DNA of 64,000 bases, taken from Candidatus Omnitrophota bacterium. Lineage in GTDB: Bacteria > Omnitrophota > Gorgyraeia > Zapsychrales > JANLHA01. The translations under genes were made by a program, and so were the position numbers. This document shows positions 2,977 to 64,000 of this stretch, piece after piece. The stretch is from the NCBI GenBank assembly GCA_023247795.1, contig JAHFFT010000001.1, positions 2,868 to 66,867 of the forward strand, read 5' to 3'. How positions within the stretch are numbered: the stretch's first letter is position 1; each line of letters starts with the position of its first letter. The notes under the pieces are model-generated. The model ran no database searches, was not told where the DNA came from, and worked only from the letters and a program-made list of their open reading frames with translations.

Positions 2977-3075
2977 TCCCAATGAAAAAAAATCCTCGGA
3001 ACCGGACAAAAACTCCCCTCCCAGACTCTTTATTAAACAGATTCAATTTATCCTTTATTTTCAGACGAGTAGGAA

Positions 3076-4958: not shown

Positions 4959-4970
4959 GCGTGGACGATT

Positions 4971-7419: not shown

Positions 7420-7429
7420 ATCGACGTTG

Positions 7430-12628: not shown

Positions 12629-14227
12629 TTAAAACTCGATATCCAAACCAAATTCCACTTGATAGGCGCCATCGGCCTCGCCATCCCGTCGAGGAGTAGG
12701 CGCGAATATGTTATTGGCGGCAGTATCGGCGCGGGTTTCCTTATAATAATCTCCCGGGAAAAAATATCCTGACAAAATACTAAACTTTATGGCTTTGGTG
12801 ATTTGATAACTAGCAAAGACATCCAATTCCTGGCCCAAGTCTTTTGAAAAAGTTTTTAAATTCCCATTGCCATCCAGACCCCATCCCGGTTCTTTTGAAC
12901 GCAAATACCAATAATCCACGCCGATATACCATTTTTCAAGTGGGGTATAATCAAATCCAACGGTCGAAGCAATCAAATTTTCAAACATGAAAGGGTCACC
13001 AAAGGTCCCGGGACGAGCGACGCCAAAATTGACCGCGTATCCGCCTGCCATTGCCACATAAGGACCAAACTGTTTCTGATAATGCGTATCGGTTAAATTG
13101 GTGTTTAATGGGGAAAAAACACTGAAGGCCTCATTTTCATTACTGGTGAGGGTAAGTTCATTATAATTCTGCGCGTTGAATCGGTTACCGGAGGCCATAA
13201 AAAATTTCGTCTTCGGTTTGAACGCCCCCAAATCATAACTGGCATCCGCAACCAAAAGATAACCTTTATGTTCGATATCATTTTGTGCCGTGTTGATGGC
13301 CTTCGCCTTTCCCAAATTTTGGTCCCCTTCAAACCCAAGATTCAGACGGTCAAAATTCAGTTTTAAATAAGCCCCTGGTGTCACAAGATCTTCGTTTTTC
13401 ACACGGGTGCTGAATCGACTTGCACGCGCACCTTCTGGTGTTCGATCCCTCAGCCAGCCGGTATAAAGTTGTAACCGTTGTTTACCCAATTTGAATGTCG
13501 TATCCGCCGTATAAAAGTAAGCATTGGTGTCATTCCAATCATTGACCTTCTCATGATCAATGACTTTTCCTAAATGAATACGATTATTCAGATCTTCTTT
13601 TTCCCAGTGGACATTCCAATCGAGTGATTCATTAACTCCAGAAAGGGTTAGCCCATAATTTTCATATTTTCCACCCAAGGCAATGTTATGACCAAGATCG
13701 CGTCCGTAAGGATACAGACCAAATTTGAAATTGACATCTTTCGTTGAATTCACCGGAACTTCCAGCCAGGTTTCTCTTAATCGAGGATATAAATCTGAGT
13801 TTTGGTACCAATGATACCGTCCAAATAAAGAGTTGATGCCACGGCTCCCATAAAGCGGGGCATCATAATCGGCGCGCCCCCTTCTTTCTACAAAAGAATA
13901 AAACTCAAGGCCGGAAAGATGGCGGAGATCAAAAGTAAAGTCATAAGCTAACCCAAGATAACTGGTCTTATCATTGTTATTCGCTAAATCAAGATCAACC
14001 GTATTGTTCACTAAATTATAAGACGTACGCAGGTGCGCTCCGGAATGAAATTTCCAATTTGATTCATCCAATAAAAAAGGATGTTTCTCAACATCCAAAT
14101 CTTTAACGTCTTTAAAATAACTCTGAGCATATATAGAGGAAGGCAGGGCAAATAAGGAAAGGAAAATAAAAATATTGACGAAAGGCTGAAGGAAAACTTT
14201 TTTACTTTTTTTGTTTTTACAAGTCAT
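12629..14227 (-). CDS. Outer-membrane beta-barrel protein (porin/exporter-like)
   Basis: The ORF-track start at 14269 is TTG. ATG 14227 gives MTCKNKKSKKVFLQPFVNIFIFLSLFALPSSIYA (signal peptide). Alternating amphipathic strands run throughout, and the C-terminus is FGLDIEF (aromatic terminal residue typical of OMPs). Confidence 0.65.
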   Translation of the reverse strand: MTCKNKKSKKVFLQPFVNIFIFLSLFALPSSIYAQSYFKDVKDLDVEKHPFLLDESNWKFHSGAHLRTSYNLVNNTVDLDLANNNDKTSYLGLAYDFTFDLRHLSGLEFYSFVERRGRADYDAPLYGSRGINSLFGRYHWYQNSDLYPRLRETWLEVPVNSTKDVNFKFGLYPYGRDLGHNIALGGKYENYGLTLSGVNESLDWNVHWEKEDLNNRIHLGKVIDHEKVNDWNDTNAYFYTADTTFKLGKQRLQLYTGWLRDRTPEGARASRFSTRVKNEDLVTPGAYLKLNFDRLNLGFEGDQNLGKAKAINTAQNDIEHKGYLLVADASYDLGAFKPKTKFFMASGNRFNAQNYNELTLTSNENEAFSVFSPLNTNLTDTHYQKQFGPYVAMAGGYAVNFGVARPGTFGDPFMFENLIASTVGFDYTPLEKWYIGVDYWYLRSKEPGWGLDGNGNLKTFSKDLGQELDVFASYQITKAIKFSILSGYFFPGDYYKETRADTAANNIFAPTPRRDGEADGAYQVEFGLDIEF

Positions 14228-14407
14228 TCTCAAAGATTGTTGAGATTCAAATTTTATAACATCTCGCAAACATTTTTTATCCTAAGCATTTTTCGTTTCA
14301 ATTGCAAGTTTTTTTTAAATTTTTTGTGGGACAGGCCAAAAATCCCGGGTATCAGGGATAAAAGATGTTGCTGGTAAAAGTCGTAAATCCTTTTTCTCGT
14401 CGAATGT

Positions 14408-14437
14408 ATTATAAAAATTTTTACTCTCACATAGCAA
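14408..14437 (-). promoter_or_regulatory. Candidate sigma70-type promoter for the OMP/TPR operon
   Basis: The minus strand reads TTGCTA - 18 nt - TATAAT. The -35 element lies inside the palindrome CATAGCAAA-CGGA-TTTGCTATG (14430..14451). Confidence 0.3.
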
Positions 14438-14483
14438 ACGGATTTGCTATGTCCAAAAAATTTATCCTAGAAGTCGGCTGGAA

Positions 14484-14513
14484 GAATTCCTCGCAGCTAG
14501 CTGCGAGGAATTC
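14484..14513. repeat. Perfect 30-bp palindrome of the CCTCGCAG...CTGCGAGG family
   Basis: GAATTCCTCGCAGCTAGCTGCGAGGAATTC is its own reverse complement. Confidence 0.9.
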
Positions 14514-14580
14514 GCTCGAGTAAAAACTGAAGATCAGAGGTATCGTGGTTTAACAGCAAGGATAAAATTCAATACTTAAC

Positions 14581-14670
14581 TCAAGTCTCATGTCTCATCT
14601 CATATCGCAGGTCGCAAGTCATTTGTAACTTGCGACTTGGTACCTGGGACTTGTTACTTTGTCACTTCGC
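14581..14670. repeat. 3'-UTR repeat block: hairpin plus ACTTG/CAAGT heptad units
   Basis: GTCGCAAGT-CATTTGTA-ACTTGCGAC hairpin (14611..14636). ACTTG-type units at 14628, 14635, 14649, 14656 and 14663. The block lies directly after the stop at 14678. Confidence 0.6.
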
Positions 14671-14677
14671 CGTGATG

Positions 14678-15778
14678 TTAATTGGGTCGCGGACCATCAC
14701 TGCCAAGGCCGCCCGGCTGACCACCAACATGATTGGCGTTATTCAGACCCGCGCCGCCCAGACCAGGTCTTTGCGTACCCTGACTTGATAATACCCCAGG
14801 CTTCGGCATGACAGGACCGACAGGCCGATTGCCATTTAACTCTTGATGGCCGGCTCCTTGCCCTTCCATTTGGGGAGATTGGTCGGACTGCATATTCCGC
14901 ATTTGACCTTGTTCTTCTTGACTATGCTCTTGCATCGCTCCCTTCGGTGCTTCATGTTGTACTTTTATCCCTCGCATTTTCTCATACTCGCTTTTCATTT
15001 GTTCTCGACGATCTTGCTGCTCTTCATGAGACGCTTGCATTTTCTCTTGATGCTGCTCTTTCATTTCCTGCAGCTGTTCATGCTCAGCATCCATCTGCTC
15101 TCGATACTCCTGTTGCTCTTCACGAACCGCTTGCATTTTCTCTTGATGCTGCTCTTTCATTTCCTGCAGCTGTTCATGTTGCGCCTTCATTTCTTCTCGC
15201 TGTTGCTGAAATTGTTCTTTATAAGCCTCTGCGCGTTCCGAATTAGCTAACGGCGGTTTTTGGTTAGGCCCGCTTATCAGTGGTCTATTCATTTCGCCCA
15301 TTGAAGCATTGGGACGAGAACCTTCTTGCTGATCACCCATAGGGCCATTATCACGTTGCCCCATCTGATCAGGTTGATTCATTGGTTGCTGCGAACCTTG
15401 ACGGTCATTATCTGTTCGTGGACCAACCTGAGAATTGCCTTGTTCACCTTGCTGCGCACCCGATTGCGGACGATTTTGTTCTCCACCCATACGATTGCCC
15501 TGAGATCCACCCTGGCCTTGCATTCCCGATCCGTTGGGCCGATCGTTATTCATACCAGGATCTCCTCTTTGGCCTCCTGGACCGCCAGAACCACCAGGTC
15601 CACCTGCTCCGCCTTGACCACCTTGATGTCCAGCGTTCATACCCTGTCCCGGACCGCCATGTCCACCTGGACCTCCAGCTCCCGGACCACCACCCGGCCG
15701 CGGCCCTTGCTGGGCGAAAACCACACCCGAAAGCGCTAAGCAAAAAATTCCAATCAAAGCCATGATTCTCATTTTCAT
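14678..15778 (-). CDS. Secreted low-complexity G/P/Q/E/M/H-rich protein
   Basis: Signal peptide MKMRIMALIGIFCLALSGVVFAQQ. A good SD (AAGGAAAGG) precedes the ATG. Composition-biased throughout, with the internal repeat EQLQEMKEQHQEKMQA. Confidence 0.75.
   Translation of the reverse strand: MKMRIMALIGIFCLALSGVVFAQQGPRPGGGPGAGGPGGHGGPGQGMNAGHQGGQGGAGGPGGSGGPGGQRGDPGMNNDRPNGSGMQGQGGSQGNRMGGEQNRPQSGAQQGEQGNSQVGPRTDNDRQGSQQPMNQPDQMGQRDNGPMGDQQEGSRPNASMGEMNRPLISGPNQKPPLANSERAEAYKEQFQQQREEMKAQHEQLQEMKEQHQEKMQAVREEQQEYREQMDAEHEQLQEMKEQHQEKMQASHEEQQDRREQMKSEYEKMRGIKVQHEAPKGAMQEHSQEEQGQMRNMQSDQSPQMEGQGAGHQELNGNRPVGPVMPKPGVLSSQGTQRPGLGGAGLNNANHVGGQPGGLGSDGPRPN
15032..15178. repeat. Intragenic direct repeat (51 bp identical, 96-bp period)
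   Basis: 15032..15082 and 15128..15178 both read CGCTTGCATTTTCTCTTGATGCTGCTCTTTCATTTCCTGCAGCTGTTCATG. Confidence 0.9.
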
Positions 15779-16018: not shown

Positions 16019-19000
16019 CTAAAATTCTTGTAAAGACTTAACTCTTTTTGTTTCTTGATGATAGCTCAATTGCTCTTCGTTCGGTGGAACCGTTTTCCCG
16101 ATCAGAGCTGGTAAATTGGTCACAGGCTTGATCTCCATGATGATCGGCAGAAAGCCATCAAATTGTAAATTTTTAATCTGCTCCGGATCAAAATCAAACT
16201 TGATTGCTGGCCCTTCATTTTGAATCATCAGCTCCAAATTTTCCGGATTCAAGTCGATACCACCAACCTCCGATGAAGCATTTTGCGGAGCAATGGTAAT
16301 CGCCGACACCTGTGGATTATTTGTATTACCTAGAAAAAAGGAATCCTTCATCCCCGGAGCTAATACCAAATTTTGGTCTAATAAATCAAGATCATTGCTG
16401 TCTCCGTTTTCTTTCTTAACTTGATTTTTAGCAATGTCCCAGACCCCGCCAAACCCAAAATCGAAAGCCTTGCCAGCCCACCCAGGGTATCGAGCAAAAT
16501 CAATCTGAACAGCATTATCTTCTGCCATAACCGGCTTTCCAGTCTCTGGATCTCTGACCATCACTTTTCCCGTGGGATCAAAATAAAGTCCTAAATCCAA
16601 ATGCCAATTGACAATTTCTTGCGCGGTCTGCCGACTTTCACCGTTTGTTACCGCAAATGCCTTGGATTCAATCAACTGATTGATTTGGGCGGAAGCACTT
16701 TCTGACAAATCATGAGCGCTTTCAGAACGAGGCTTGGCATACCAAGATCTTTGAATCTCACCGGTTTCCGGGTCAAAGAGGGCCATGACCGCCTCCTGCC
16801 TTTTCCATTTGTATTGACCGGTAACGGTCGAATAAGTATCACTGCTGTAATAAAGTTCCATCCGATTATCACGCGAAGCCAAAACATAAATACGGTCGTG
16901 CATAAAAAACGCTTGATGGAACAGAAACAAATTGGGTTTACCTTCGGTTGTATTTTGACGGTTCTGCCTGACATATCTGGCAAATGCCTCTTTTGTGGGA
17001 GCATCCTTCGCGTTGATCACCTTGAATGAGTAATCCCCGCTGTTCACTTCGCCGATGACGCGATCTTCATCCCTGCGCCATTGAGCTTTTTTGTTTTTCT
17101 TGATCAGAAGTCTCTTGACCCGCCCCAATTCAACCGCCTTGGAAAATTTATAGCTCCGATATTTGTAGATCAATTCCGAAATGACGTATTTGAGATCCAC
17201 CACCTTCTCTGCCTTCTCAAATTGATAAACCAAAACGAGGTAATGCGTGATCAAAGCAAGAATATCGGCCTGATCACCCTCAGTTTTTACACCGAGTTCT
17301 TTGTCAACATCACGGATAAAATCCTGATCAATATACTCAGCCAGTTTTAGAATCCCATCTTTATCTTTCCCTAAAAAATATTTTTTCATCTCATCATTAA
17401 CTTCGATCGCCATTATTGTGTTCAACCGTTCTATTCTCCTTTCAAGCTTTAGTATTTCCTCTTGACCAAAATTTTCCTTTAACTGTAATTTTAGTAGCAC
17501 TAATTCATGCCTTCGTTCCGCGTTAGTCATTAATATGCTGCGGACTGGCACTTGAGTAAATTTGTGATACCCATTCGCCGTTAGGACCGGTGCTAAACGA
17601 TTCGCCTGAGCAAAAAAGTCAGCCCGATCTGACGGGTTTGTTGTAAGAACGATATCCAAGGCCAAAGCAATGAGATTGAGAATATTCCGGTAGCGGTCTG
17701 GATCAGATTGAAAAATCTTAGCCAAAGGAAAATCGACATCTAACTTGAAACGATTTCTTTCTTTTTCATCATTTTGGACAACAATCTTTAAAACGTTGCC
17801 GGGGCTGCGCTTTTTTATCGTTTTCTTGATTCGATCTCGATCGATATCCGCTTTCGTGATCTCATTGATCGCCATGGTTCCTTCTGTTCCAGCGGTCCCC
17901 TCGATTTCATCCTCGAATGCTTCAGGAACAGGTACGAGAGGGATATCCGACTTGGATTCTTTATGGCCTTCGACAATGGCAGCAATCGTTTGCTGTTGAA
18001 AATCTGTGAGATCTTCATCAACACCTGGTTTCGGTGTTCGAACAGGAAACCCTTTGCCAATCTCGGCCAAGACGGGTTTCAATTCACTCCATTCCTTAAT
18101 AGGCAATTTAGTAAATCGAGAACTTTCTCTCAATAAAACCAACCGCGAATAAATCCTGCCGACATGGCTTTCTGGTTCCAGTTCATCCAGTTCATGCAGA
18201 TCGATGGCTTCCAGCAACTCCGCGATATCATCCCTCGTTGCCTCAATCCTTTCCAAGTCACTCGCCACCGTCTGGCGAAAATACTCCATGACAACCTCTG
18301 ACGATTCCAAAATTTTTTTCATAGCGAACATCGCTTCTTCATCATCCATTTGATCACGGACCGAATTCATCCCTCTCGCGAAATAGCGAGTACATACCTC
18401 TGGTTCTCTTTCAAATTTCCCCAAAATCTTCGCAATCAACCCCTCACGTAATGCTGCTGCTAATTTTTGCACGTTCACACTGAATTTATTTTCCCTTCGA
18501 ATCATATCAAATGTTATAAGCTGACTGGCCGTAAGCTCTTGCTGACCTTTCCCACGTAAAATCTTGACCGCTTGCGGCAATTGCTTTTGTTGCGTTAGAA
18601 TGACGGCTAAAATCAATCGCTTTTGATCATCGGTCAATTGCGCGCTTTCTTTGATTCGCTTTTTTTCATCCAAATAATCCTGATTGGCATCAGCGACCAG
18701 GAACTTAACCGCGCGTTGCAAATATTCTGGCATTGCCTTGAGCATTTTATTATTTTGTAAAACATATCTTTGGTTTCCAGAATCGGGATCAAAAATTCTT
18801 CCGCAGCGCGTTGCGATGATTTTAAAAGGATACGAATCCCCGACCGAATCGTTATGAGTGGGTTCAAAATCAATCTTGCCCTCATCATCAATTCGACCTT
18901 CCAGCATCGTGGGCGTATACTCACTATGCATCGCCTCGGTTATCAAAACCTTTTCAACGGATTGATGGAACCGGCTTCTTTGATTTATCGCCAAGCTTTG

Positions 19001-22000
19001 AATTTTTTTGTCCGAAAGCGTAAACGCGCTTTTCCACGCAACACCGATGCCATTTTTCGATTTCAAATCTTGAATCTGAAACCGATACCCTTGCTGTTCA
19101 CTGCCCAAAACTTGAACTGAAAAATTCCTTCCCGAAAGCTTATCGTCATTCGCGAATAATAGCTCTGCCCCAGCACCCCTACCAACGATAAATTCCTTAC
19201 CTACGCTAAATGCCCTCACATCCCCAGCTAGTGCTGTGTCAATTGTTTTATCTGGAAACGCCTGTAGGTAGGCACGATCACCCGCAACCCAAAGCCGATA
19301 CCAACCTGTTCCGGCTTGGATCCAAACATCATCAATCAACTCTTGCATTCCCGTATCCAAGACCTTCTCTTCCCTCGTTTTCATATTTCTATCGTCTAAG
19401 ACTTGATCTTTAGTTTTGACCATCCTTTCCCATTCCACGGTGATGGATCTATCTGTATAAGTCCCTGTCTTAACTCGATAATTCTCTGTCCCTGGAATAG
19501 GGTCTACGACGATATAACAATGTTCCGATTGAAGGTTGGGATCATTCGGGAAATAAAGTTCATCGATCTGCTTATTTTTTCCAAAAGCATGGAGCTCTCC
19601 TAAACTTATTTTGTAAACTTTCGATTCGTTTGAGGGCGGACCATTCTTGATGTCATGCTGCAGGACCCGGACCTGGTTGTTCACAACCCGAATACTGTAC
19701 CAAAATTTTCCACCCTCGGGCTGGATCCACTGGACCCTACCGGGCAACAAAACAAATTCAACCGGTGCCGGAGTTTGCGATTCTCCCCGCCTATTGTTCG
19801 TCGGAGCCAAAACAACCGGCTTGCCCGCTTTTGTTTTCATATACCTTGCTGTTGCTCCTACTTTGGGAGCTGAATTAACCACAGCAGCATTGTCCATCGA
19901 TCTTTGAATGCCAATCAGATTGGATAAATTCTGATAGACACGGTGATAAAATCTTGCGTCTTGAGGAAAAAAGTCGGAGTCATAAATAAGACGGTTTGCC
20001 CACCCCAATGATAACCAATCCTTTTTCCGCAATTCGCTCATGATTTCAGCCTTTTCCACGAGACTTAAAACTTTCTCTTGTTTGAAATAATTTAAGGCTG
20101 CGTCATAATCATTTTTTAAAAGCGCCCCTAACAATTTAAAAGTTGCGTCGTTTTCTTTAGAATCACTTTGCATTTCACGCAAATATTGCACCAAATGATC
20201 CGCAGAAACTTGTTGAGGATATCTCTCTTGTAATTTCGCTTTCACGCGATTTTTAACTCGCAAAAAATTTTCGGTCGCATGTTCACCAAGCAAATAAGAA
20301 CGCTGCAACTCAGGTGTTTTCATGAAATTGAGCATTAAAGCATTGTCCACCGTACCAAAATAAGGATGAGCCTCTAGCGCATCCATATAACTACTCATTT
20401 TAGCAACGACTGCATCAAAGTCGTCGAAATCACCAGCGCTATACCCATCCTTCATGAGTGCCTCGGCAATGCCCTCTATCATTCGATCTTCATCAGGATT
20501 TTGAGATTCCACTGCGGTACCGATGGTGCTGACTTTATCTTGACGACCCGCGTTGGAATCAAGCAGTTGCTCCCGGTCCTGCTCGGTATATGCCCCGGTC
20601 CCCGTTCGTTGATCCGCCGTGACCCATTCTGCCGGTTGTTCCAGCAGTCCTAACTGCTCTCTGGCCCGTTTGATTTTGACCCGCCCATTGATTTCACTCA
20701 GCTCGTGCTGTTCGACCGCCTCGGTCATATCGTCGCTGAAACCGAGGACAATCCACTCTCCCCGGACCTTATCGAAATAGTTGATCGCCTTGATCCCGGC
20801 CTTGGCTCCGGTTTTACTGCTCATATGGTTGATCACCCATTTATCAAAAACTTTTCCTAATTCTGTTTCTTTCGCCCCGCGATCAATGCGGATGACCTTG
20901 ACTTTGTAGTTTAAGTCCTTTTGATTGATAACTTGCTGCCCCTCATAATCCAAGGTCTCGCCTGCTGCCACCTGCTGCTCAATCGACGGAGAAGCTGTTG
21001 GCAAAAACCCATTCTGGTCAAGAAGCCCAACGATATGATTCAAAATCTGGTCTTCACTGGCGTTTTCAGGAAGTTTTTTCCCCTTGGCAACGGTGTTCAA
21101 CAAACGAATCATCCGGTTATAATAGGTTACCGGGGTGACAACCGCGGAGGCATTATAAACTTTTTGGTTTTCTAATTGCGCGGAGGTTAAATTCTGAGCT
21201 TCTGATGAGACATCAATGGTGGTGACACCACTAACCTCTGTTCCTTTAAATCCTCCGGAAAAATATTTCCTCGGGATGGAGGCTTGAAGATACGGATCAT
21301 AATCTTCTTTGATGTAGTTATAAACCCCCTGCTTGAAGGCCGCGATATACTGCTCATAAATCTGCTGTTGACCGTCCTTGTCATCTGAATCAACTCCGAC
21401 GACCTTATTTTTATCCACATAAATGCTGTCGAGAATGCTTTCGCGCAACTTCTTTTTGAACCAGGTCGCGAGGATCATGGCGTTGTAAATCTGGCGCAAT
21501 TGGGCAAAATTCTGACCTTCATTGACTTCTTTTTCGATCGTCGGTAAAACGATTTTCTTGACGATGTCTGAAGAAAAAGTACTGACGCTACCAACATCCG
21601 TGTTAGTCAATGACTCCGTCCCTAAATTTTTATTGCCTCGATTGGAATCCAGAGCGAGATAATCTTCTTCCAACATCACCTGCAAATGACTTTCAATCAC
21701 AAAAGCGGTCGCGCCATTTTCATAGACCCGGGCCTTGTCAGGAACAATCCAGACTTTATTGAAGGTATTGATCGGGACGTTGGTGGTACCATATTCCTGA
21801 TAGGCCTTTTCATAAATTTCCTTCCAAAACTGCGCACCCAGCTCTTTTTCCGGGTAGATCAAAGAGGCAGTGATTTGCTTTAACAGATAGTCCTGGGCCA
21901 AAAGATCGCGCCCCATCTCGGTCTGACCAAACTGTTCGGGAATGATCCGATTTTCTTCATAGGGCGACAAATTGACCCACAAGTCCTTTTCCGGGACCGT

Positions 22001-22300
22001 CAGGGTTGCTAAAAAATATTTGATCATCTTTTGCGATTCTTCCTTCAAGGCTTGATCAGACAGCGTTTGGTCCCCAGGTGTTACGATGAAATCAAACCGA
22101 AAAGGGTTATTAGGGAAAACCTTCACCCCCTTTAACAAGGCCGGCGCAAAGGCCTGGCTTAGCCCGACCATCGAGCCTGCCTGCGGAAGATTGAGCGGTT
22201 GAATTTGCGCGAAACCATTCCCGGGGCTGATCAGATTGAAAAAAAAAGTGAAAATAATCAGCAGATTGATACTTCGATATTTTTTGATTTGCTTTGCCAT
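16019..22300 (-). CDS. Giant secreted protein (2093 aa), function unknown; two FHA-like segments and a C-terminal domain shared with 60206..64000
   Basis: Single uninterrupted ORF. Signal peptide MAKQIKKYRSINLLIIFTFFFNLISPGNGFA. FHA-like stretches are encoded at ~19427..19600 and ~19033..19190 (FIVGRGAGAELLFANDDKLSGRNFSV...IQDLKSKNGIGVAW). The C-terminal sequence is VGGIDLNPENLELMIQNEGPAIKFDFDPEQIKNLQFDGFLPIIMEIKPVTNLPALIGK. Confidence 0.8.
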   Translation of the reverse strand: MAKQIKKYRSINLLIIFTFFFNLISPGNGFAQIQPLNLPQAGSMVGLSQAFAPALLKGVKVFPNNPFRFDFIVTPGDQTLSDQALKEESQKMIKYFLATLTVPEKDLWVNLSPYEENRIIPEQFGQTEMGRDLLAQDYLLKQITASLIYPEKELGAQFWKEIYEKAYQEYGTTNVPINTFNKVWIVPDKARVYENGATAFVIESHLQVMLEEDYLALDSNRGNKNLGTESLTNTDVGSVSTFSSDIVKKIVLPTIEKEVNEGQNFAQLRQIYNAMILATWFKKKLRESILDSIYVDKNKVVGVDSDDKDGQQQIYEQYIAAFKQGVYNYIKEDYDPYLQASIPRKYFSGGFKGTEVSGVTTIDVSSEAQNLTSAQLENQKVYNASAVVTPVTYYNRMIRLLNTVAKGKKLPENASEDQILNHIVGLLDQNGFLPTASPSIEQQVAAGETLDYEGQQVINQKDLNYKVKVIRIDRGAKETELGKVFDKWVINHMSSKTGAKAGIKAINYFDKVRGEWIVLGFSDDMTEAVEQHELSEINGRVKIKRAREQLGLLEQPAEWVTADQRTGTGAYTEQDREQLLDSNAGRQDKVSTIGTAVESQNPDEDRMIEGIAEALMKDGYSAGDFDDFDAVVAKMSSYMDALEAHPYFGTVDNALMLNFMKTPELQRSYLLGEHATENFLRVKNRVKAKLQERYPQQVSADHLVQYLREMQSDSKENDATFKLLGALLKNDYDAALNYFKQEKVLSLVEKAEIMSELRKKDWLSLGWANRLIYDSDFFPQDARFYHRVYQNLSNLIGIQRSMDNAAVVNSAPKVGATARYMKTKAGKPVVLAPTNNRRGESQTPAPVEFVLLPGRVQWIQPEGGKFWYSIRVVNNQVRVLQHDIKNGPPSNESKVYKISLGELHAFGKNKQIDELYFPNDPNLQSEHCYIVVDPIPGTENYRVKTGTYTDRSITVEWERMVKTKDQVLDDRNMKTREEKVLDTGMQELIDDVWIQAGTGWYRLWVAGDRAYLQAFPDKTIDTALAGDVRAFSVGKEFIVGRGAGAELLFANDDKLSGRNFSVQVLGSEQQGYRFQIQDLKSKNGIGVAWKSAFTLSDKKIQSLAINQRSRFHQSVEKVLITEAMHSEYTPTMLEGRIDDEGKIDFEPTHNDSVGDSYPFKIIATRCGRIFDPDSGNQRYVLQNNKMLKAMPEYLQRAVKFLVADANQDYLDEKKRIKESAQLTDDQKRLILAVILTQQKQLPQAVKILRGKGQQELTASQLITFDMIRRENKFSVNVQKLAAALREGLIAKILGKFEREPEVCTRYFARGMNSVRDQMDDEEAMFAMKKILESSEVVMEYFRQTVASDLERIEATRDDIAELLEAIDLHELDELEPESHVGRIYSRLVLLRESSRFTKLPIKEWSELKPVLAEIGKGFPVRTPKPGVDEDLTDFQQQTIAAIVEGHKESKSDIPLVPVPEAFEDEIEGTAGTEGTMAINEITKADIDRDRIKKTIKKRSPGNVLKIVVQNDEKERNRFKLDVDFPLAKIFQSDPDRYRNILNLIALALDIVLTTNPSDRADFFAQANRLAPVLTANGYHKFTQVPVRSILMTNAERRHELVLLKLQLKENFGQEEILKLERRIERLNTIMAIEVNDEMKKYFLGKDKDGILKLAEYIDQDFIRDVDKELGVKTEGDQADILALITHYLVLVYQFEKAEKVVDLKYVISELIYKYRSYKFSKAVELGRVKRLLIKKNKKAQWRRDEDRVIGEVNSGDYSFKVINAKDAPTKEAFARYVRQNRQNTTEGKPNLFLFHQAFFMHDRIYVLASRDNRMELYYSSDTYSTVTGQYKWKRQEAVMALFDPETGEIQRSWYAKPRSESAHDLSESASAQINQLIESKAFAVTNGESRQTAQEIVNWHLDLGLYFDPTGKVMVRDPETGKPVMAEDNAVQIDFARYPGWAGKAFDFGFGGVWDIAKNQVKKENGDSNDLDLLDQNLVLAPGMKDSFFLGNTNNPQVSAITIAPQNASSEVGGIDLNPENLELMIQNEGPAIKFDFDPEQIKNLQFDGFLPIIMEIKPVTNLPALIGKTVPPNEEQLSYHQETKRVKSLQEF

Positions 22301-22514: not shown

Positions 22515-23105
22515 CTATTTGCCTCTTACGATTTCTTCAAAGGCCTTTTGCGGACATATGTGCTTAAGGATATAATTCAGCAAAACCGACGCCAAGGAAC
22601 GGAGCCTTTTATCAACCTTTGGATCGAGACACTTTCCTTGATCGTCAAAGAGCTGATGAACGCCCGCCACCGATACAACGTCAGGTAAGACCACCGCGCC
22701 AATGTGCGCGCATACACTGCGTAAATGTTCCAAGGCCTTAATCGCCCCAATCTGTCCGGAAGCAACACCCAATAAGACAACCGGCTTTCCCGCCAACACC
22801 GACGGGTAACCTAAATTTTCAATGATCAATTTGATCACACTGCTATAGCTGCCGTGATATTCTGGTGTTGCTAAAATGATCCCGGTCGCCTGAGCAACTT
22901 TCGCCTTGATATCCTTCACCGACCGGCCTTCGCTTTCGCCTGGAAAAGCAAGGGTCAAACAGCCCGGATCAAGGATGTCGACCTCCAATGAATGGCTGTT
23001 CTTAAGCTCCGCAAGGACAATATCAAGCGCCTTGCGAGTAAAACTATCCCGACGGACACTGCCCAAAATAGCCACAATCCTAATCTTTTGTTCTTTTTTC
23101 ATCAT
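22515..23105 (-). CDS. NAD(P)H-dependent FMN reductase family protein
   Basis: IRIVAILGSVRRDSFTRK and LATPEYHGSYSSVIK are flavodoxin-like FMN reductase motifs. Confidence 0.8.
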   Translation of the reverse strand: MMKKEQKIRIVAILGSVRRDSFTRKALDIVLAELKNSHSLEVDILDPGCLTLAFPGESEGRSVKDIKAKVAQATGIILATPEYHGSYSSVIKLIIENLGYPSVLAGKPVVLLGVASGQIGAIKALEHLRSVCAHIGAVVLPDVVSVAGVHQLFDDQGKCLDPKVDKRLRSLASVLLNYILKHICPQKAFEEIVRGK

Positions 23106-24775
23106 TGACCCTTTCCTTCCACCCCTCGTTCAAGAAGATAAATCTTCAATTCTTCGGGAATCGGCTGCCCCCACAAAGCCAATTTCTCAACACACTGCTT
23201 GGCTTGGTCCGGCTGCCCATTGCGATGATAAATTGAAGCCAGTTGATAATACGCTTGAAACAAATAGGGATCGATAGCTACCGCCTTCTGCAGCGAAGCA
23301 ATCGCCTGCTCAATCTTATTCTCTCGGAAATATAACAACCCAAGATTGAAATGCGCTGAGGCATATTCTGGGTTCAATTTGATTTCATTTTGATAAGCCT
23401 GTTCAGCCAGTTCAACCTGATTCGCCGCCGCATAAATCAATCCCAGATTATTATAGACCATGGGTTCCTGATCGTTGAGCTGCAGGGCCTTTTGATACTC
23501 ATCAATCGCCGCCGGGTAATCGCTTTTCAAATAATAAACCACACCCAAATTTTTGTGGGCCAACGCGCAATGCGGTGAGTGTTCAACCGCGTCCTTCCAA
23601 AAACTAAAAGGTCCCTGATAATTTTGGCTGTACTGAAAGGTCAGGACCGCCAAACCAACAACACTCACGCTCATCAGCAAATATTTCAAATTTTCAAATT
23701 GCAAAATCTTCTTAACCAAATCCGTTTCGAATAAAAACAGGAGGATCCCGATGATGGGAAGATAAAGACGGTATTCATGATCAACAAAACTAATAAATAA
23801 CGACGGCAATAAAAACAACAAATACCATAACAAACCCAACATCATGACCCGCCGCCGCTTTTGAGGCGAACGTTTCCACAACACGACGAGCACGGTAAAA
23901 GCAGCTAGTCCATACCAAGGATGAAGGTCTTGCAACAACGGAAACGGCGACAAATTGAAAGGGAAAAAAACCTTGCCAAGATACGTTATCAGCGACGGCA
24001 AATTCAGCAGAGATTTTGGCAGCGCCTGCGCTAGCGGCACGCCTAACCCATGACCAAGAACCAAAGACCGGATCACCAGCCAACTGATCAAAAGCACCCC
24101 CCAAGCGCCGAAATAAAAATGGAGTCTTTGCAAAGCAGCTCGCGGAACGGCAACGACCAGAAGTAAAAGAACATAAAATAAAGGAACAACGACCGCGGTC
24201 TCTTTTGTGAAAAGGGCCAAGACAAAAAAAAGATTTTGCAGTAAAAACATTCCCCAACGGTTTGATTGCAAAAAGTCCAGCCAGCACAGCAATGAGAGAA
24301 GAACAAAAATCGCCAACAAGGAATCGGTGCGCCCGGGGATCCAAACCACGGCCTGGGTGAGTGCCGGGTGCGCTAAAAAAATCAGACTCGCCCAAAGGCT
24401 TTGCTCTTTCGTGAAATTAAGTCGCAGAAAAAAAATAAAGAGCAGCCCACTATTCAAGACATGGATCAAAATATTCGTCAGATGATAACCCAACAGATTT
24501 TGTCCGTATAGCTGGGCATCCAGCATAAAGGAAAGACTTAAAACTGGACGATAAAAAACCGCAGAAACCAAATCTGGATTGAGAAAGATATCTTTCATCT
24601 TAGTAAAATCTTTCAAAAGCCAGTGCTTATCAAAAATCCACACTTGATCATCGAGCAGGGTCAAATCAAAAAAAAGGCTTTGCCAAAACAAAAGCACCCC
24701 CAGTAGCAAAAATAAACCTATGAAGGCGAATCGCGCTAATACCGAATGGCTTTTCAAGGAGGAAGGATGCTCCAT
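23102..24775 (-). CDS. Polytopic membrane protein with C-terminal TPR repeats (GT-C/PMT-like glycosyltransferase architecture)
   Basis: About 11 hydrophobic segments, then TPR units (NLGVVYYLKSDYPAAIDEYQKAL, NLGLIYAAANQVELAEQAY, NLGLLYFRENKIEQAIASL). There is a 4-nt overlap with the FMN reductase gene. Confidence 0.6.
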   Translation of the reverse strand: MEHPSSLKSHSVLARFAFIGLFLLLGVLLFWQSLFFDLTLLDDQVWIFDKHWLLKDFTKMKDIFLNPDLVSAVFYRPVLSLSFMLDAQLYGQNLLGYHLTNILIHVLNSGLLFIFFLRLNFTKEQSLWASLIFLAHPALTQAVVWIPGRTDSLLAIFVLLSLLCWLDFLQSNRWGMFLLQNLFFVLALFTKETAVVVPLFYVLLLLVVAVPRAALQRLHFYFGAWGVLLISWLVIRSLVLGHGLGVPLAQALPKSLLNLPSLITYLGKVFFPFNLSPFPLLQDLHPWYGLAAFTVLVVLWKRSPQKRRRVMMLGLLWYLLFLLPSLFISFVDHEYRLYLPIIGILLFLFETDLVKKILQFENLKYLLMSVSVVGLAVLTFQYSQNYQGPFSFWKDAVEHSPHCALAHKNLGVVYYLKSDYPAAIDEYQKALQLNDQEPMVYNNLGLIYAAANQVELAEQAYQNEIKLNPEYASAHFNLGLLYFRENKIEQAIASLQKAVAIDPYLFQAYYQLASIYHRNGQPDQAKQCVEKLALWGQPIPEELKIYLLERGVEGKGQ

Positions 24776-57295: not shown

Positions 57296-57454
57296 GGTGG
57301 CTAGAGGGAATTAGACTAGAATCATAATATATTGAAAATAAATGAGTTATGGATTAGACATTTACAGATCCCTAAAATGAAGCATGCTCGCAACCAAAAT
57401 CGCGCCTCAAGAGAATCAAATGGGAGCCAAGTCCGGATCTGACTCACTTTTTAT

Positions 57455-57512
57455 ACTTAAAAACAATCTCAGGTCGTACAGCGGCTGGATATTGATGATG
57501 GAGACAAAACTT
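57455..57512 (-). repeat. Orphan copy 1 (most decayed) of the 3' end of gene 60206..64000
   Basis: 57474..57510 TCGTACAGCGGCTGGATATTGATGATGGAGACAAAAC aligns to 60234..60273 with a 3-nt deletion. It would encode FVSIINIQPLYDL. Confidence 0.7.
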
Positions 57513-57538
57513 GTGTGAATAGAAAAACTTCCTCAAAA

Positions 57539-58720: not shown

Positions 58721-58791
58721 AAATAAACCATACCACATCTTGTACAGTTTGCAAGTTAAATATTCAATTAGTACAGATTTGTTCTCAAACC

Positions 58792-58909
58792 TTAATTCCC
58801 AAAAAGGTCGACAGATCGTAAAGCGGCTGGACATTGATGATGACCGGGACAAAACCTGGAGCATTTTGCAATTGTTTGAGCAGGGCGGGATCGAGATGAA
58901 ATTGGATTT
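58792..58909 (-). repeat. Orphan copy 2 of the 3' end of gene 60206..64000 (118 bp, about 89 percent identical by hand count)
   Basis: Aligns base for base with 60210..60327, with 13 mismatches by my count. It retains the frame KIQFHLDPALLKQLQNAPGFVPVIINVQPLYDLSTFLGIKV-stop. No homologous sequence lies upstream of it. Confidence 0.85.
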
Positions 58910-58976
58910 TTATGGAATACACAATTCTTCGGTTGTTTTAAAAATATTATTGACAAAGGCTCCATATTCGTCGAAA

Positions 58977-60161: not shown

Positions 60162-60205
60162 TAAAATATTCAGCCATACCTATTTTTCCTCAGAATCGGA
60201 TCGCT

Positions 60206-63200
60206 CTATTTAATTCCCAAAAAGGCCAATAAATCGTACAGCGGCTGGACATTGATGATGACGGGGACAAAACCCGGGGCATCTTGCAGTTGCTTGAGTA
60301 GGGCGGGATCAAGATGAAATTGGATTTCACCGTTCTGATTTACTTTCAGGTTCATTTTGTTAGGATCGAAATCAATACCACCAAGCTGATCAGGACGATC
60401 CGACATCTCCGGTGCTGCGTCCTCACCTAACATCAACCGATCCGACGCTCCTCCGCCATTGGGCTTCTGATTTTGTAAACTGTCCTCTGCATTACTTTGC
60501 ACTTCTCTAATTTTAGCTTCAATGCGATTGACCGCGTCAGGGTACAATTTACCTTCAACGAAATCGGCCTCATTCAAAGGAACCCAATATTTCGCTTCAA
60601 TCTTCTCTATCCCAACACCGATTAAATCATTGGAATGGTTTTCAAAATGTTCACGCATCAATGCGAACGCATCGGCTGTAGATAAATATTTTATCATTTT
60701 AATAAAATCCACACTGCTGTTTATCGCAGCAACTTGCTTAGTTAGTCTTTCCTCGATATCCAATTCCATTAATTCTGTCTTGTCATCCAAGGTTGGCGTA
60801 TACTCCCCTAATTTTTGAATATATATTGTATGTTCTTTCCCTTCCTCAATGTCACAAGAATAGCCAATGTTGCGCAAAATAATTGATAATATTTCTTTAT
60901 CCTTATATTCACTGTCAAATAAAATGAACCAACCATCATTCTCAAGGACACGCATAACCTCTTTTAAGACCACCATAAAATCTTTGATCGAAATAAAATA
61001 TACCATCACAAAAGACTCGTTGATAATGTCTATGGACTGATTACTAAATGGTAGCCGACGGAGATCACCATTGACAAGCTGCACACCTGGCAACGATTGT
61101 TTAGGATCGATATCCATATCAATGCCTATCCCTTCTACTTGATCACCTAATTCTTTCCTAAGTTCGACCAACGCCCTGCCTTCTGGACCAGAACCCAAAT
61201 CTAAAACCCGCAATTTACCTGGCGCCTTTCGCGCCAGATGGTCTTTGATCAGCTCCAAATGTTTTAGCAAATAATCCGGTCTATTACTATCACGGGCATA
61301 TTTCTGATGAAACACCTCCCACAAAAAAATCTCGTCTTTCTCAAGAGTCCCCAATTCTTTCAGACGATTTATTAATCTTCCCACAATCTTACCTTGCAAA
61401 AGTTCTTGCATATTAAACTTTCTAAAATATTGGACCATAATCATGCCAAGATGTTCTGGGATTGGCTTTTGAATTCCACTGAAACGAAGCCATCCTTCGT
61501 TTAACAGTCGCACTTTTTCATCCATGCTCAAAGACTCCTCCCCCAATTTAACACTCAAAATTTCTGCGAATTTTTCAACATCATCTCCGGTCTCATTCAA
61601 TATTCCCTGAAATATATCCTGACCAAGCATTAGACGATCCGCTGTTTCTACAGTAGCAGACGGCTCCGCCAAATCCCTCATCGCCATTTCATCTAATATT
61701 TCAATAGAAGGATTCTTTGCCATCCTGATCTGCTCCGGCTCTAAAACCGCGATATGAATATTCCTACTCCCAAACATAACCGCATCTTCATCTTGCAGCT
61801 CTCTCAATCCTGTAAAAAATAAATTATCGTATGCTTTTCCCAAAAATTCTGTGACATTGACATATTCAGGATGCCGTTCAATGACATTCAAAGGTTTTCT
61901 GACATTCAAAAAAGCAGACATTAAAATCTTCTTTACTGTATTAGGGACATATAATTGCTCTCCATTAATTTTTATAAGATGACAATTAATTTTATTTGGT
62001 GCTAATCCATCAAATAAATCAGCAAGCTCTGATTGAACAAACAAATTCTTTCCATCAAAAACTACGATTCCAGGTTTCTTTGTAAACGATACCCGATCCA
62101 GATTCTCTGCGTTTTCGATAAATTCATTCCATTTTTTAAACACTGCAGGCGTATCGGTAAGATTAAACTTTTCTTTTAGCAGAGATAACATGCTTTTTAA
62201 AAATTTAAATCTAAAATAGCTAAATTCATTCACAACAAAATCTCGATCTGAAGAGAAATAAAATGCATGTCTTTCACCAAAATCAAAATTCCTGCGCGCA
62301 TTTTTATCAAATTCATTAAATTCCCTGCCAGTTCCATGATAAAAAATTTTGGGCTCACCGGTTTCGGCATCAATCATTTTCGAGGCTAATTCGGGATGAT
62401 TTATCCAATCTCCAAACCATGCGATAAAATCAGGATCTCTCACTTGTAAAAAATGTAGGAGCCCAAGTTTAGAGGGTTTGCCATTTGGCGCTTTCAATTC
62501 AACCACTTTTCCATCTTGAATTTTAATGTTTCCATTCAAAACTTCTCTATTAAAAATCTGCTTATAAATTTCTATATCAATATGATCATCATATCTTTCT
62601 GTCAATGTTGACAACATCAATCGATCAAATCGCCCAACTTCATCCGCTGTTTCTACAGCGGCAGGCGGCTCCGCCAGATCCCTCATCGCTTGATTGCGCT
62701 CGGTGATCTGCTGATCGAGATCAGCGCTGCTACGCATCTCGATTCGATAGACCATTGCTTGCTCGCTTATCATCTCTTCAACCACTTTTTGGAATAAAAC
62801 CGCTGTCTCCGGCGAAGAATGGATGACCCTTCTGTAAATCTCCCTCTGATTTTTATCATTAATCCGCCAATAGGAAACATATCTCCTTATGAACTCTTCC
62901 ATTGATAAATCCAAAGGAACCCACCCCCATTCCGATTCCGGCAATTGCCTGATGAACGCGATCGTCGCTGCCGGTAAATTCAATCGCCGCGGCAGAACCT
63001 CATTAAAAATGCTGTCGCGGGACGGACTTTCAACGCCAATGGTATCCGCAAATCGATCCAGATGGTATAAACGAAACAGCAAGGCTCCAAGATGATCATC
63101 TCTCTCTTTCATCAGCGCCCTTTCCACAGCAAAATCAAAAAATTCTGCATTCGCAACATTGATTCTCTGGGCAACAAACAGCTCTTTCATAATTTTTTGA

Positions 63201-64000
63201 TGACCTTTTCCAGCAAGTGATTGGTACACCTCCCAAAGCAATCGTACCTGCTGTTTTTCGTTCAAATGTCTTAAAGGGATAAGTTGCTGAAGTCGTCTCG
63301 CCAGTTCCTCAAAATTCCTTGCCGTCATAATTGGATAAATCAATGTGGATGAAGACAGCCCCATCAATTCCGCGATCTTTGTATAAGCCCTTATCAGATC
63401 TCGATAATCTTTTGCCTTTTTAAAAAGTATTTTTTTTCGCGTGTAAATTAAGCTATACGGTGAGACGCTGCTCAAATCGCGATTCTCCAATGCATAAGCA
63501 ATGATTTCATCTTTAAAACGTTTAAAGGCATCGAATTCCGCGTCAAACATCTCAGGAGTTTGATTTGGATTGACATTGATTTTCCTTAAAACATTTTTTC
63601 TAAAAAAATAATTGTGAAGTTCATGATGAAATTCGTGTCTTGAGGTACTGTCGTCTTTAAAAATTTTGGTTTCTTGCAAGCTTTTGGCTAATTTGGGCCT
63701 TGGTAATAGCATAAACCCCACATCTCTGCTATTACTGCTCATAAAACAAACAGCCACTCCATTAAAAATAAATAATTTTTGATCACGGAGCAATTCAAAA
63801 AAAGGATCTTCAACTTCCAGCATAAACACACCCGGTTTGATTTCGATCAAAACTCCAGCTTTCCGATTTGCTTGGACGTCGCTCGGGCCAATCTGATATT
63901 GTTTAATGAACTCTAAAACCTGTTTCAAATCTTCCGCAATCTTCTTTGCTCCCCTATTGAAACCATTTGCAATGATAGCAACTGACAGAAAATACAATAC
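60206..64000 (-). CDS. Large modular protein (at least 1263 aa; 5' end probably beyond the right window edge): HExxH module, YHGT ART-like module, class-I SAM methyltransferase module, shared C-terminal domain
   Basis: The frame is open to the window edge, and the track start is a TTG 3 nt from the edge. HEFHHELH at ~63614..63640. FYHGTGREF at ~62331..62345 and AFYFSSDRDF...SY at ~62247..62266. VLDLGSGPEG at 61179..61207. C-terminal LGGIDFDPNKMNLKVNQNGEIQFHLDPALLKQLQDAPGFVPVIINVQPLYDLLAFLGIK at 60209..60388. Confidence 0.8.
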   Translation of the reverse strand, partial: VLYFLSVAIIANGFNRGAKKIAEDLKQVLEFIKQYQIGPSDVQANRKAGVLIEIKPGVFMLEVEDPFFELLRDQKLFIFNGVAVCFMSSNSRDVGFMLLPRPKLAKSLQETKIFKDDSTSRHEFHHELHNYFFRKNVLRKINVNPNQTPEMFDAEFDAFKRFKDEIIAYALENRDLSSVSPYSLIYTRKKILFKKAKDYRDLIRAYTKIAELMGLSSSTLIYPIMTARNFEELARRLQQLIPLRHLNEKQQVRLLWEVYQSLAGKGHQKIMKELFVAQRINVANAEFFDFAVERALMKERDDHLGALLFRLYHLDRFADTIGVESPSRDSIFNEVLPRRLNLPAATIAFIRQLPESEWGWVPLDLSMEEFIRRYVSYWRINDKNQREIYRRVIHSSPETAVLFQKVVEEMISEQAMVYRIEMRSSADLDQQITERNQAMRDLAEPPAAVETADEVGRFDRLMLSTLTERYDDHIDIEIYKQIFNREVLNGNIKIQDGKVVELKAPNGKPSKLGLLHFLQVRDPDFIAWFGDWINHPELASKMIDAETGEPKIFYHGTGREFNEFDKNARRNFDFGERHAFYFSSDRDFVVNEFSYFRFKFLKSMLSLLKEKFNLTDTPAVFKKWNEFIENAENLDRVSFTKKPGIVVFDGKNLFVQSELADLFDGLAPNKINCHLIKINGEQLYVPNTVKKILMSAFLNVRKPLNVIERHPEYVNVTEFLGKAYDNLFFTGLRELQDEDAVMFGSRNIHIAVLEPEQIRMAKNPSIEILDEMAMRDLAEPSATVETADRLMLGQDIFQGILNETGDDVEKFAEILSVKLGEESLSMDEKVRLLNEGWLRFSGIQKPIPEHLGMIMVQYFRKFNMQELLQGKIVGRLINRLKELGTLEKDEIFLWEVFHQKYARDSNRPDYLLKHLELIKDHLARKAPGKLRVLDLGSGPEGRALVELRKELGDQVEGIGIDMDIDPKQSLPGVQLVNGDLRRLPFSNQSIDIINESFVMVYFISIKDFMVVLKEVMRVLENDGWFILFDSEYKDKEILSIILRNIGYSCDIEEGKEHTIYIQKLGEYTPTLDDKTELMELDIEERLTKQVAAINSSVDFIKMIKYLSTADAFALMREHFENHSNDLIGVGIEKIEAKYWVPLNEADFVEGKLYPDAVNRIEAKIREVQSNAEDSLQNQKPNGGGASDRLMLGEDAAPEMSDRPDQLGGIDFDPNKMNLKVNQNGEIQFHLDPALLKQLQDAPGFVPVIINVQPLYDLLAFLGIK
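61637..62689. repeat. Intragenic ~49-bp direct repeat encoding the inter-module linker
   Basis: 62641..62689 and 61637..61685 (CCGCTGTTTCTACAG..GCAG.CGGCTCCGCCA.ATCCCTCATCGC) encode AMRDLAEP(P/S)A(A/T)VETAD, each followed by DRLML. A third DRLML is encoded at ~60428..60445. Confidence 0.8.

Follow-up and report, generated by a model that had tools for sequence, protein, structure and literature searches.

A 64,000-nucleotide (nt) stretch of Omnitrophota DNA (hereafter the window; all coordinates are window positions) contains two large open reading frames (ORFs), both on the minus strand, whose products share a conserved C-terminal domain (CTD) of ~60 amino acids (aa). The window is ordinary chromosome, with a MurC–Ddl fusion, FtsQ and FtsA (dcw cluster), LigA, UvrD, MTHFR and TPR proteins. 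A first-pass annotation, made from the sequence alone, had singled out the CTD as a candidate sorting or anchoring module carried by two otherwise unrelated proteins. Once this premise is corrected, the finding is more than a two-protein coincidence: the CTD is a constant terminal module on a polymorphic, exported and modular protein family.

The first gene (16019..22300, minus strand, from the ORF and its translation) is complete and encodes a family member of 2,093 aa, whose exact sequence is on record in a European Nucleotide Archive (ENA) assembly. The protein begins with a Sec-type signal peptide (MAKQIKKYRSINLLIIFTFFFNLISPGNGFAQ; 22205..22300, minus strand), as read from the sequence and the alignment, followed by a conserved N-terminal module (N-module; approximately residues 33–390; 21131..22204, minus strand) that ends at an invariant RKYFSGG, as delineated by an alignment of 22 members. 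After a variable region of about 1,600 aa, which we call the cargo, comes CTD copy 1 (residues 2012–2069; 16094..16267, minus strand; VGGIDLNPENLELMIQNEGPAIKFDFDPEQIKNLQFDGFLPIIMEIKPVTNLPALIGK), a divergent, type B-like version of the domain. This copy does not occupy the extreme C-terminus, being followed by a variable tail of 24 aa (16022..16093, minus strand).

The second gene (60206..64000, minus strand) starts beyond the window end. What had been described as a 1263-aa protein is the C-terminal part of a 1,797-aa family member, P0238, which we found by protein search and whose residues 535–1797 are 100% identical to the translation of 60206..64000. The signal peptide of P0238, MSCQRSVSLTVIACFLISSLNLPVVFAQE, and the N-module that follows it are thus encoded outside the window. 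CTD copy 2, of the mainstream type A (LGGIDFDPNKMNLKVNQNGEIQFHLDPALLKQLQDAPGFVPVIINVQPLYDLLAFLGIK; 60209..60385, minus strand), forms the last 59 residues, and the stop codon (60206..60208) comes directly after it.

Two cargo domains of P0238 could be recognized within the window, both on the minus strand. One is an ART-PolyVal domain, the ADP-ribosyltransferase of polyvalent proteins, with a match core at 62219..62365 (Pfam PF18760, E 1.6e-10, above the gathering score). The other is an S-adenosylmethionine (SAM)-dependent methyltransferase at 60908..61216, matched by Pfam Methyltransf_11/25/31 and, below their cut-offs, by NCBIfam methyltransferase families. The motif DRLML, a variant of a D-x-A-M delimiter found throughout the family, occurs three times in this protein (all on the minus strand, read from the sequence): before the ART module (62615..62626, context ...MRDLAEPPAAVETADEVGRFDRLMLS), at a boundary that is used differently in a close orthologue, P0239; before the methyltransferase module (61628..61639, context ...MRDLAEPSATVETADRLMLGQD); and 19 aa upstream of the CTD (60428..60442).

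The two C-terminal peptides quoted by the first-pass annotation are indeed encoded on the minus strand, whereas the coordinates given for the first (16097..16268) were off by 1–3 nt. Their homology was confirmed. The domains alone are 37% identical (BLASTP E 3e-12), and the whole proteins, in their window forms, match with an E of 7e-10. We also built an independent hidden Markov model (HMM) from 149 CTDs found elsewhere, with zero window sequences, and scored it on the six-frame translation of the window. It matched just four places: the 60209..64000 ORF (E 8e-29), 58788..58937 (E 9e-24), the 2,093-aa ORF (E 2e-17) and 57419..57532 (E 3e-5). The second and fourth of these are CTD remnants, described further below.

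Outside the CTD, the two proteins are not unrelated as had been claimed. When the 2,093-aa protein was compared with full-length P0238 by BLASTP, the N-termini were 55% identical over 394 aa (E 1.6e-124), covering the signal peptide and an N-module of ~380 aa, and the C-termini were 30% identical over 125 aa; only the middles showed no similarity. Since the two proteins share both ends, with no match in between, they are paralogues of one family and not unrelated proteins sharing a tag.

Relatives of the CTD proved to be very numerous. A CTD profile, seeded with six short relatives from a word-indexed search, was scored against 1.84 billion cluster representatives and matched 5,283 clusters (at 50% identity) with E ≤ 1e-3, 1,878 of them with E ≤ 1e-10. 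The consensus, GGIDLTPANMNLQTQN-G--IKFHLDPAMLQQLQNAPGFVPVIINIQPM--L--FLG, is followed by a short variable tail. We checked the position of the domain in 155 database proteins, 72 to 2,491 aa long, comprising the best 150 of the 5,283 matches and the first six relatives: in 150 of 156 matches the CTD ended 0–15 aa before the C-terminus, and one protein had an additional internal half-copy. In the genomes, all 88 copies (from 80 loci) had a stop codon within 0–92 aa, mostly within 15 aa; the distance was 0–36 aa in nearly all of them, three copies having longer tails (92 aa at most). The HMM scan that the first-pass annotation had suggested as a check on C-terminal position thus yielded no complete internal copy among the 88 genomic copies or the 156 database matches, and the similarity was neither randomly placed nor insignificant.

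Two sequence types of the domain could be distinguished. Type A, carried by the 1,797-aa protein, is the mainstream form and has a short tail. Type B, GGIDLNP..LDLQIKRDG.GIPLP....I.GFVPVIINI.PV.NLP.LLG, has a longer and more acidic tail (~31–36 aa in copies from elsewhere), and includes the CTD of the 2,093-aa protein.

A scan of genomes, one for each GTDB species, yielded 254 confirmed stretches, and the best 79 loci were used for taxonomy. These loci came from ~40 metagenome-assembled genomes (MAGs), a single MAG having as many as 8, often arranged in tandem. The MAG labels were mostly Omnitrophota or Omnitrophica, the rest being 'Ca. Zapsychrus', 'uncultured Planctomycetales' and one 'bacterium'; the family genes in the 'uncultured Planctomycetales' bin-chicken MAGs look like those of Omnitrophota MAGs. 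Viral DNA gave 2 matches in 2.9 million IMG/VR contigs, by which a phage origin of the CTD was ruled out. The CTD is the constant C-terminal end-module of a very large, Omnitrophota-specific family.

The layout of this family is a Sec signal peptide, an N-module of ~350 aa ending in RKYFSGG, a hypervariable cargo with D-x-A-M delimiters and, finally, the CTD. Across 80 related loci we found about 55 homologues each for residues 1–380 and 2001–2093 of the 2,093-aa protein, and zero for residues 400–1950. Long carriers, including the 2,093-aa protein, commonly begin with a signal peptide and then ...LPAPGVMV.LSP.FNPPILKGIKVHPDNPFRFDFI.D.GD.... The alignment of 22 N-modules had a mean column identity of 43%, with many invariant residues and the terminal RKYFSGG invariant, and all 22 aligned N-termini showed signal-peptide features (a basic region, a hydrophobic region and an A-x-A or AQ site).

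Among the 85 CTD genes in the loci, 51 had a signal peptide and an N-module, 27 were cut at a locus edge and 7 were seemingly complete and lacked the N-module, which was thus present in 51 of the 58 resolvable genomic carriers. Several of the seven turned out to be remnants of 93–98 aa or pieces of genes split into multiple ORFs. Conversely, nearly all N-module genes that lacked a CTD were cut at the 3' end, and many lay directly downstream of another family gene, indicating that the family forms tandem arrays. The spacing between RKYFSGG and the CTD ranged from 280 to 2,070 aa (median 957) in 78 proteins, none of which was a cargo-less member with abutting N-module and CTD.

Both window proteins have the diagnostic features of the family, i.e., the signal peptide, the N-module ending in RKYFSGG and a CTD of the form GGID...GF-PVII-I-P...L--FLG near the stop codon, with the delimiter confirmed in P0238 only. 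In the 2,093-aa protein, the body of which was not scanned, the residues just before the CTD contain no D-x-A-M delimiter.

Many small 'CTD-only' ORFs in the databases are fragments of long family genes, as at loci L077 (1785-6225), L083 (1909-8222), L085 (1-8351) and L001 (5816-10210), where the splitting was attributed to frameshifts, stops or long-read assembly errors. A separate class of CTD-only mini-proteins was considered and rejected, as those inspected proved to be remnants or parts of long genes that had been split. The conserved ends of the family also seem to break short-read assemblies, giving rise to many matches of 60–140 aa on contigs of about 1 kb. Isolated remnants of 93–98 aa, not accompanied by an N-module, occur at L036 (4402-7003) and L032 (5917-6210); the one at L036 is flanked by two opposite-strand genes of ~365 aa that are paralogues and resembles the window remnant that lies between duplicated inserted genes.

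The delimiter is a recurrent feature of the cargo region. D-x-A-[MQ] was found within 30 aa upstream of the invariant GG of the CTD, most often at -7 to -11, in 73 of 137 carriers (expectation, ~0.06 per 30-aa window). The stricter pattern D[RHKQ][AL]M, often extended to GD.AQL....D.AM, occurred 0.57 times per 1,000 aa in family bodies versus 0.03 in the other genes of the same loci, an 18-fold enrichment. Loss and duplication of modules can be seen directly in P0239 (ENA ERZ27296333, from another sample), an 89%-identical orthologue of P0238 without the ART-PolyVal module and with two copies of the methyltransferase module. The breakpoints coincide with the repeated MRDLAEP...DRLML / DHLML delimiters (window region 60431-62630), meaning that the cargo middle consists of exchangeable modules bounded by a conserved joint. 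The D-x-A-M motif marks module boundaries, among them the one immediately ahead of the CTD, and is a candidate processing site or recombination joint.

Cargo domains in a Pfam scan of 48 other carriers were GNAT, group-1 glycosyltransferase (GT1), starch synthase, HEAT, PPDK_N, GGDEF, HAD, M48 peptidase and REC. No peptidase domain was recurrent across these carriers.

Neither Pfam, NCBIfam, the PDB nor the searchable literature, incompletely covered as it was, yielded an account of the N-module, the CTD or the delimiter. The CTD had no match in Pfam-A or NCBIfam (whole window proteins; 25 CTDs versus NCBIfam at E ≤ 10) or among PDB sequence profiles, and the N-module had none in Pfam (22 N-modules, lax thresholds) or the PDB.

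For a codon analysis of the CTD, we used a gap-free core of 28 residues in 36 genomic copies. The amino-acid identity of the core averaged 82%, and codons at conserved residues were identical in 54% of pairs, versus 46% expected from pooled codon usage; the result was unchanged within one MAG. Synonymous codons that are near-random at such amino-acid identity imply that the conservation of the CTD is imposed on the protein and not on the DNA. In 33 complete members, the pairwise identities of the N-module correlated with those of the CTD (Spearman rho 0.77, Mantel p ~0.001), as would be expected if the two ends had descended together or co-adapted.

As to its physical character, the CTD lacks a transmembrane (TM) segment (maximum 19-aa Kyte–Doolittle hydropathy of the consensus, 0.88), its tails are not basic (6.6% K+R, 9.1% D+E) and cysteine is near-absent (2 of 155 sequences). 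The first-pass annotation had already remarked on the lack of a TM segment and of sorting signals, and we likewise found no TM helix, no basic tail and no match to a known sorting-signal HMM. AlphaFold2 (AF2) modeled the isolated domain with low confidence (pLDDT, 56.7 for type B with 8 sequences and 69.9 for type A with 125 sequences), as a short hairpin followed by two helices, one spanning DPALLKQLQ and a short one at the end, leaving the very hydrophobic GFVPVIINIQP as coil.

The data show how the family is built and distributed, that the CTD keeps its place near the C-terminus and that selection acts on the protein; its function is inferred. Our preferred reading, to which we assign a probability of roughly 45%, is that the CTD is a localization or partner-docking end-module of an exported effector carrier. 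Family carriers would cross the inner membrane via Sec, after which the two constant ends would provide the steps common to all members. The CTD would be a localization or docking determinant acting at the protein level, either read in trans by machinery of the envelope or forming a pair with the N-module, and would guide the carrier as far as the outer membrane or across it, or retain it at the surface. The low AF2 confidence is weakly compatible with a domain that might need a partner for order.

The effector part of this reading comes from the cargo, which includes NAD-dependent ADP-ribosyltransferase, SAM methyltransferases, GNAT, nucleotide-sugar glycosyltransferases, GGDEF and PPDK-like domains. 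Because such enzymes need NAD, SAM, acetyl-CoA, nucleotide sugars or GTP, they would be useless in the periplasm of the producer, and cargo with these cytoplasmic cofactor needs would most plausibly act inside another cell. Published work suspects that Omnitrophota live by attacking other cells, as predators or parasites. The D-x-A-M delimiters would be candidate processing or recombination joints between the cargo modules. The role originally proposed for the CTD, sorting or anchoring, survives in part: a fixed C-terminal position, selection at the protein level, differing bodies and Sec signal peptides make a post-Sec role plausible, whereas the notion of a tag on unrelated proteins fails, since 51 of 58 carriers are one family.

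Several points weigh against the preferred reading. The ~1,600-aa cargo of the 2,093-aa protein has no domain recognizable with Pfam or NCBIfam, so that the term 'effector' leans on other members, and many other cargo regions likewise have no known identity. Signal peptides were judged by eye and alignment, and the position of the CTD was checked solely in the best 150 of 5,283 matches and the 88 genomic copies. Shared phylogeny confounds the correlated divergence of the N-module and the CTD, and the low AF2 confidence might merely reflect a shallow or low-diversity alignment. Finally, no transporter, sortase, protease or other conserved non-paralogous partner gene was found beside family genes in the 80 loci. 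The transporter or sortase partner that the first-pass annotation had envisaged is therefore missing from these neighborhoods.

A bolder version would make the family a hitherto unrecognized, phylum-specific effector-delivery system, in which polyproteins exported by Sec are routed by their ends to or through the outer membrane and cut at D-x-A-M, so as to release cytoplasm-type enzymes (ADP-ribosyl-, methyl-, acetyl- and glycosyl-transferases) into the prey or host. We consider this full scheme unlikely as it stands.

Among the alternatives, the one that survives best, although we regard it as somewhat unlikely, is that the N-module and the CTD fold or assemble into one unit, for example a membrane-insertion or translocation device like the flanking repeats of MARTX toxins, with the cargo inserted between them. 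The CTD would then be structural and not a signal to be read. The co-occurrence of the two modules in most resolvable carriers and their correlated divergence would be expected from such a split scaffold, as would the poor AF2 prediction of the CTD in isolation and the lack of a conserved partner gene nearby; moreover, an invariant ...SGG closes the N-module and an invariant GG opens the CTD. On the other hand, no member with abutting ends was seen, the spacing never falling below 280 aa in the 78 proteins, and the correlation may be purely phylogenetic.

That the CTD is a portable tag, i.e., an autonomous C-terminal signal placed on unrelated proteins and read by a dedicated system, in the manner of the type IX secretion system (T9SS) CTD or of sortase signals, appears distinctly unlikely. 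The C-terminal position is kept in the checked copies of a family with thousands of proteins, the domain is confined to one phylum with many copies per genome, and some database proteins begin with Met and have no N-module. However, the N-module is common to both window proteins and to most genomic carriers, and the N-less cases examined were contig-edge starts, genes split into several ORFs or remnants. The absence of any match to a known sorting-signal model, of a TM helix and of a basic tail also speaks against a portable tag, as does the failure to find linked machinery in the 80 loci. All in all, the CTD looks more like part of a delivery or localization scaffold than like a portable tag.

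We attach little probability to the idea that the CTD is a cleaved pro-domain or processing element, which together with the D-x-A-M and GG motifs would be removed or act during maturation, e.g., as an intramolecular chaperone or as a protease site for the release of cargo. The conserved D-x-A-M shortly upstream of the invariant GG and the recurrence of the motif between cargo modules would suit such a role, and published work on giant Omnitrophota proteins has noted C39 and S8 peptidase domains by which these giants might be cleaved. Against this, the 48 scanned carriers had no recurrent peptidase domain, and the motif is equally explicable as a linker or a recombination joint.

The least probable alternative concerns the DNA itself and arises from the two CTD remnants in the window, both first found with a two-sequence HMM on the six-frame translation. 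The larger is a 45-aa ORF, ...KIQFHLDPALLKQLQNAPGFVPVIINVQPLYDLSTFLGIKV (58785..58922, minus strand; HMM match 58788..58937), which includes a 118-nt DNA copy (58792-58909) 89% identical to the 3' end of the 1,797-aa gene. The second, shorter remnant of the CTD 3' end encodes IINIQPLYDL (57470..57500, 31 nt, minus strand; HMM match 57419..57532). The region 57470-60330 thus contains three direct copies of the CTD-coding 3' end (the gene end, the 118-nt copy and the 31-nt copy), which bracket two AAA_14/DUF4143 ATPase genes, at ~58977-60161 (plus strand) and 57539-58720 (minus strand), mutually 30% identical. As the orthologous locus in another sample has a single AAA_14/DUF4143 gene, the second copy in the window looks like an insertion that duplicated its target, and DUF4143 genes may home to the conserved CTD-coding sequence. 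A general link between DUF4143 and the CTD was ruled out, the two being near each other at just one other locus in 80.

That the CTD 3' end is kept as an attachment or recombination site serving the exchange of cassettes or the insertion of mobile genes is highly improbable in spite of these remnants, of the single DUF4143 gene at the orthologous locus and of the isolated remnants at L032 and L036, because the codon analysis largely rules out a DNA repeat or att site as the cause of the conservation, DUF4143 genes are not generally associated with the CTD, and insertion beside a conserved sequence leaves the amino-acid conservation unexplained.

The conserved neighbors of family genes in the 80 loci were solely paralogues, TPR/GT-C proteins and housekeeping synteny. 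Membrane-plus-TPR proteins adjoin family genes in five loci (L009:6601-8535, L072:6441-8354, L075:6413-8170, L080:6257-8020 and L036:8402-9979), and one is also found upstream of the 2,093-aa gene in the window (23102-24775, minus strand). A PMT_2 (GT-C) match was obtained for just two of them, those of L075 and of the window (23102..24775). STT3-like oligosaccharyltransferases adjoin family genes in three further loci (L055:6204-8639, L021 and L040). These neighbors may hint at periplasmic glycosylation of the exported family proteins.

On the 3' side, a toxin–antitoxin string (HicA/HicB, RelE, DUF433) directly follows a CTD-ending gene in L083 (8556-12843), and also in L084, an arrangement suggesting that mobile or accessory cargo can settle in the 3' flanks of family genes. 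Immediately downstream of the 2,093-aa gene (12629-15778, minus strand) lie genes for a 366-aa protein with no family match and for a 546-aa protein with a weak match to alginate export proteins (AlgE-like outer-membrane barrel). Neither recurs beside family genes at other loci.

Elsewhere in the window, a 789-aa ORF (27264-29633, minus strand) within the cell-division and cell-wall cluster encodes a fusion of a complete D-Ala-D-Ala ligase and Mur ligase domains of the MurC type. A Macro-domain protein (186 aa) is encoded beside a SIR2-family protein (264 aa) at 2449-3870 (minus strand), a pairing known from ADP-ribosylation systems. This pair adjoins a urea-transporter-like gene, an Orn/DAP-type decarboxylase gene and two ATP-grasp genes (3870-8518).

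Omnitrophota are ubiquitous, ultra-small and almost wholly uncultured bacteria, suspected of being predators or parasites, and their mode of attack is an open question. Attention has so far gone to their giant genes. The CTD family differs from these and is far more numerous: it comprises thousands of clusters, and its many copies in each genome also form tandem arrays. Its clean, searchable architecture gives testable predictions on localization, processing at D-x-A-M and the interaction of N-module and CTD, while two HMMs (for the N-module and the CTD) offer a simple handle to catalogue a candidate effector arsenal across the phylum. The family also explains why Omnitrophota assemblies break at these genes and why there are many short 'hypothetical' ORFs containing only the CTD. 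If the two ends define a new route of export or delivery, they would be of general interest for secretion biology; if the effector-delivery scheme is true, the family would correspond, among smaller proteins, to the giant 'archaeovorins' and would be a main arsenal of these ultra-small predators.

Among known systems, the T9SS CTD and MARTX toxins come nearest in logic. The T9SS of Bacteroidota is similar in that a Sec signal peptide is combined with a conserved, strictly C-terminal domain on many proteins per genome, in one phylum-level lineage. However, the T9SS CTD is a seven-stranded, Ig-like beta-sandwich of 70–100 aa, whereas the CTD described here has ~60 aa and a predicted mixture of helix and short strands (in a low-confidence model), and its carriers also have a common conserved N-module. 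Models of the Por_Secre_tail and gliding CTDs (PF18962, TIGR04183, TIGR04131) gave no match to the window proteins (E ≤ 1), the 48 carriers or the 25 CTDs (NCBIfam, E ≤ 10). Annotated window genes included no T9SS machinery (SprA/Sov, PorV, PorU), no whole-genome search for it having been made.

Membership in other classes was not supported either. The CTD has neither the TM helix nor the basic cluster of sortase, exosortase and rhombosortase signals (LPXTG, PEP-CTERM, GlyGly-CTERM), nor an NCBIfam match to them. Dockerin type I repeats (PF00404) had no Pfam match on the CTD in the window proteins or the 48 carriers. The barrel of classical autotransporters (type Va secretion, T5aSS; PF03797) takes at least 250 aa, and there was no Pfam match to it; the conserved C-terminal region here is just ~60 aa. 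Features of type I secretion substrates (RTX, MARTX) are also lacking: a signal peptide is present, Pfam found no RTX repeats and no transporter gene recurs as a neighbor.

In overall design, MARTX toxins nevertheless resemble the family, since their constant N- and C-terminal regions bracket exchangeable enzymatic effector modules with short conserved junctions, and close relatives vary by gain, loss and duplication of modules, as do P0238 and P0239. They differ in having no Sec signal peptide, in using a type I system, and in their long glycine-rich repeat ends and cysteine protease domain. Polyvalent proteins are like P0238 in placing an ART-PolyVal domain beside a methyltransferase in one long polypeptide; they are borne by phages and conjugative elements, whereas the genes of this family are chromosomal, near housekeeping genes, and encode a signal peptide and constant ends. 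CdiA (with its VENN motif), Rhs proteins and the oomycete CRN proteins (HVLVxxP) likewise join a conserved trafficking part to variable modules at a short delimiter, and are multi-copy, tandem and variable. Constancy in those systems is limited to the N-terminal part, with a variable C-terminus, whereas the present family varies in the middle, between two constant ends.

A further comparison is with the giant Omnitrophota proteins ('archaeovorins'; West-Roberts et al. 2023 preprint; 2026 complete-genome preprint), neither preprint mentioning the N-module or the CTD. The giants are unlike the family in their length, 10,000 to 147,000 aa, and in their many TM helices. They come, however, from the same phylum, signal peptides are common among them, and their cytoplasm-type domains are those of the cargo repertoire described here: GNAT, glycosyltransferase/starch synthase, HEAT, PPDK_N, GGDEF, HAD, methyltransferase and REC.

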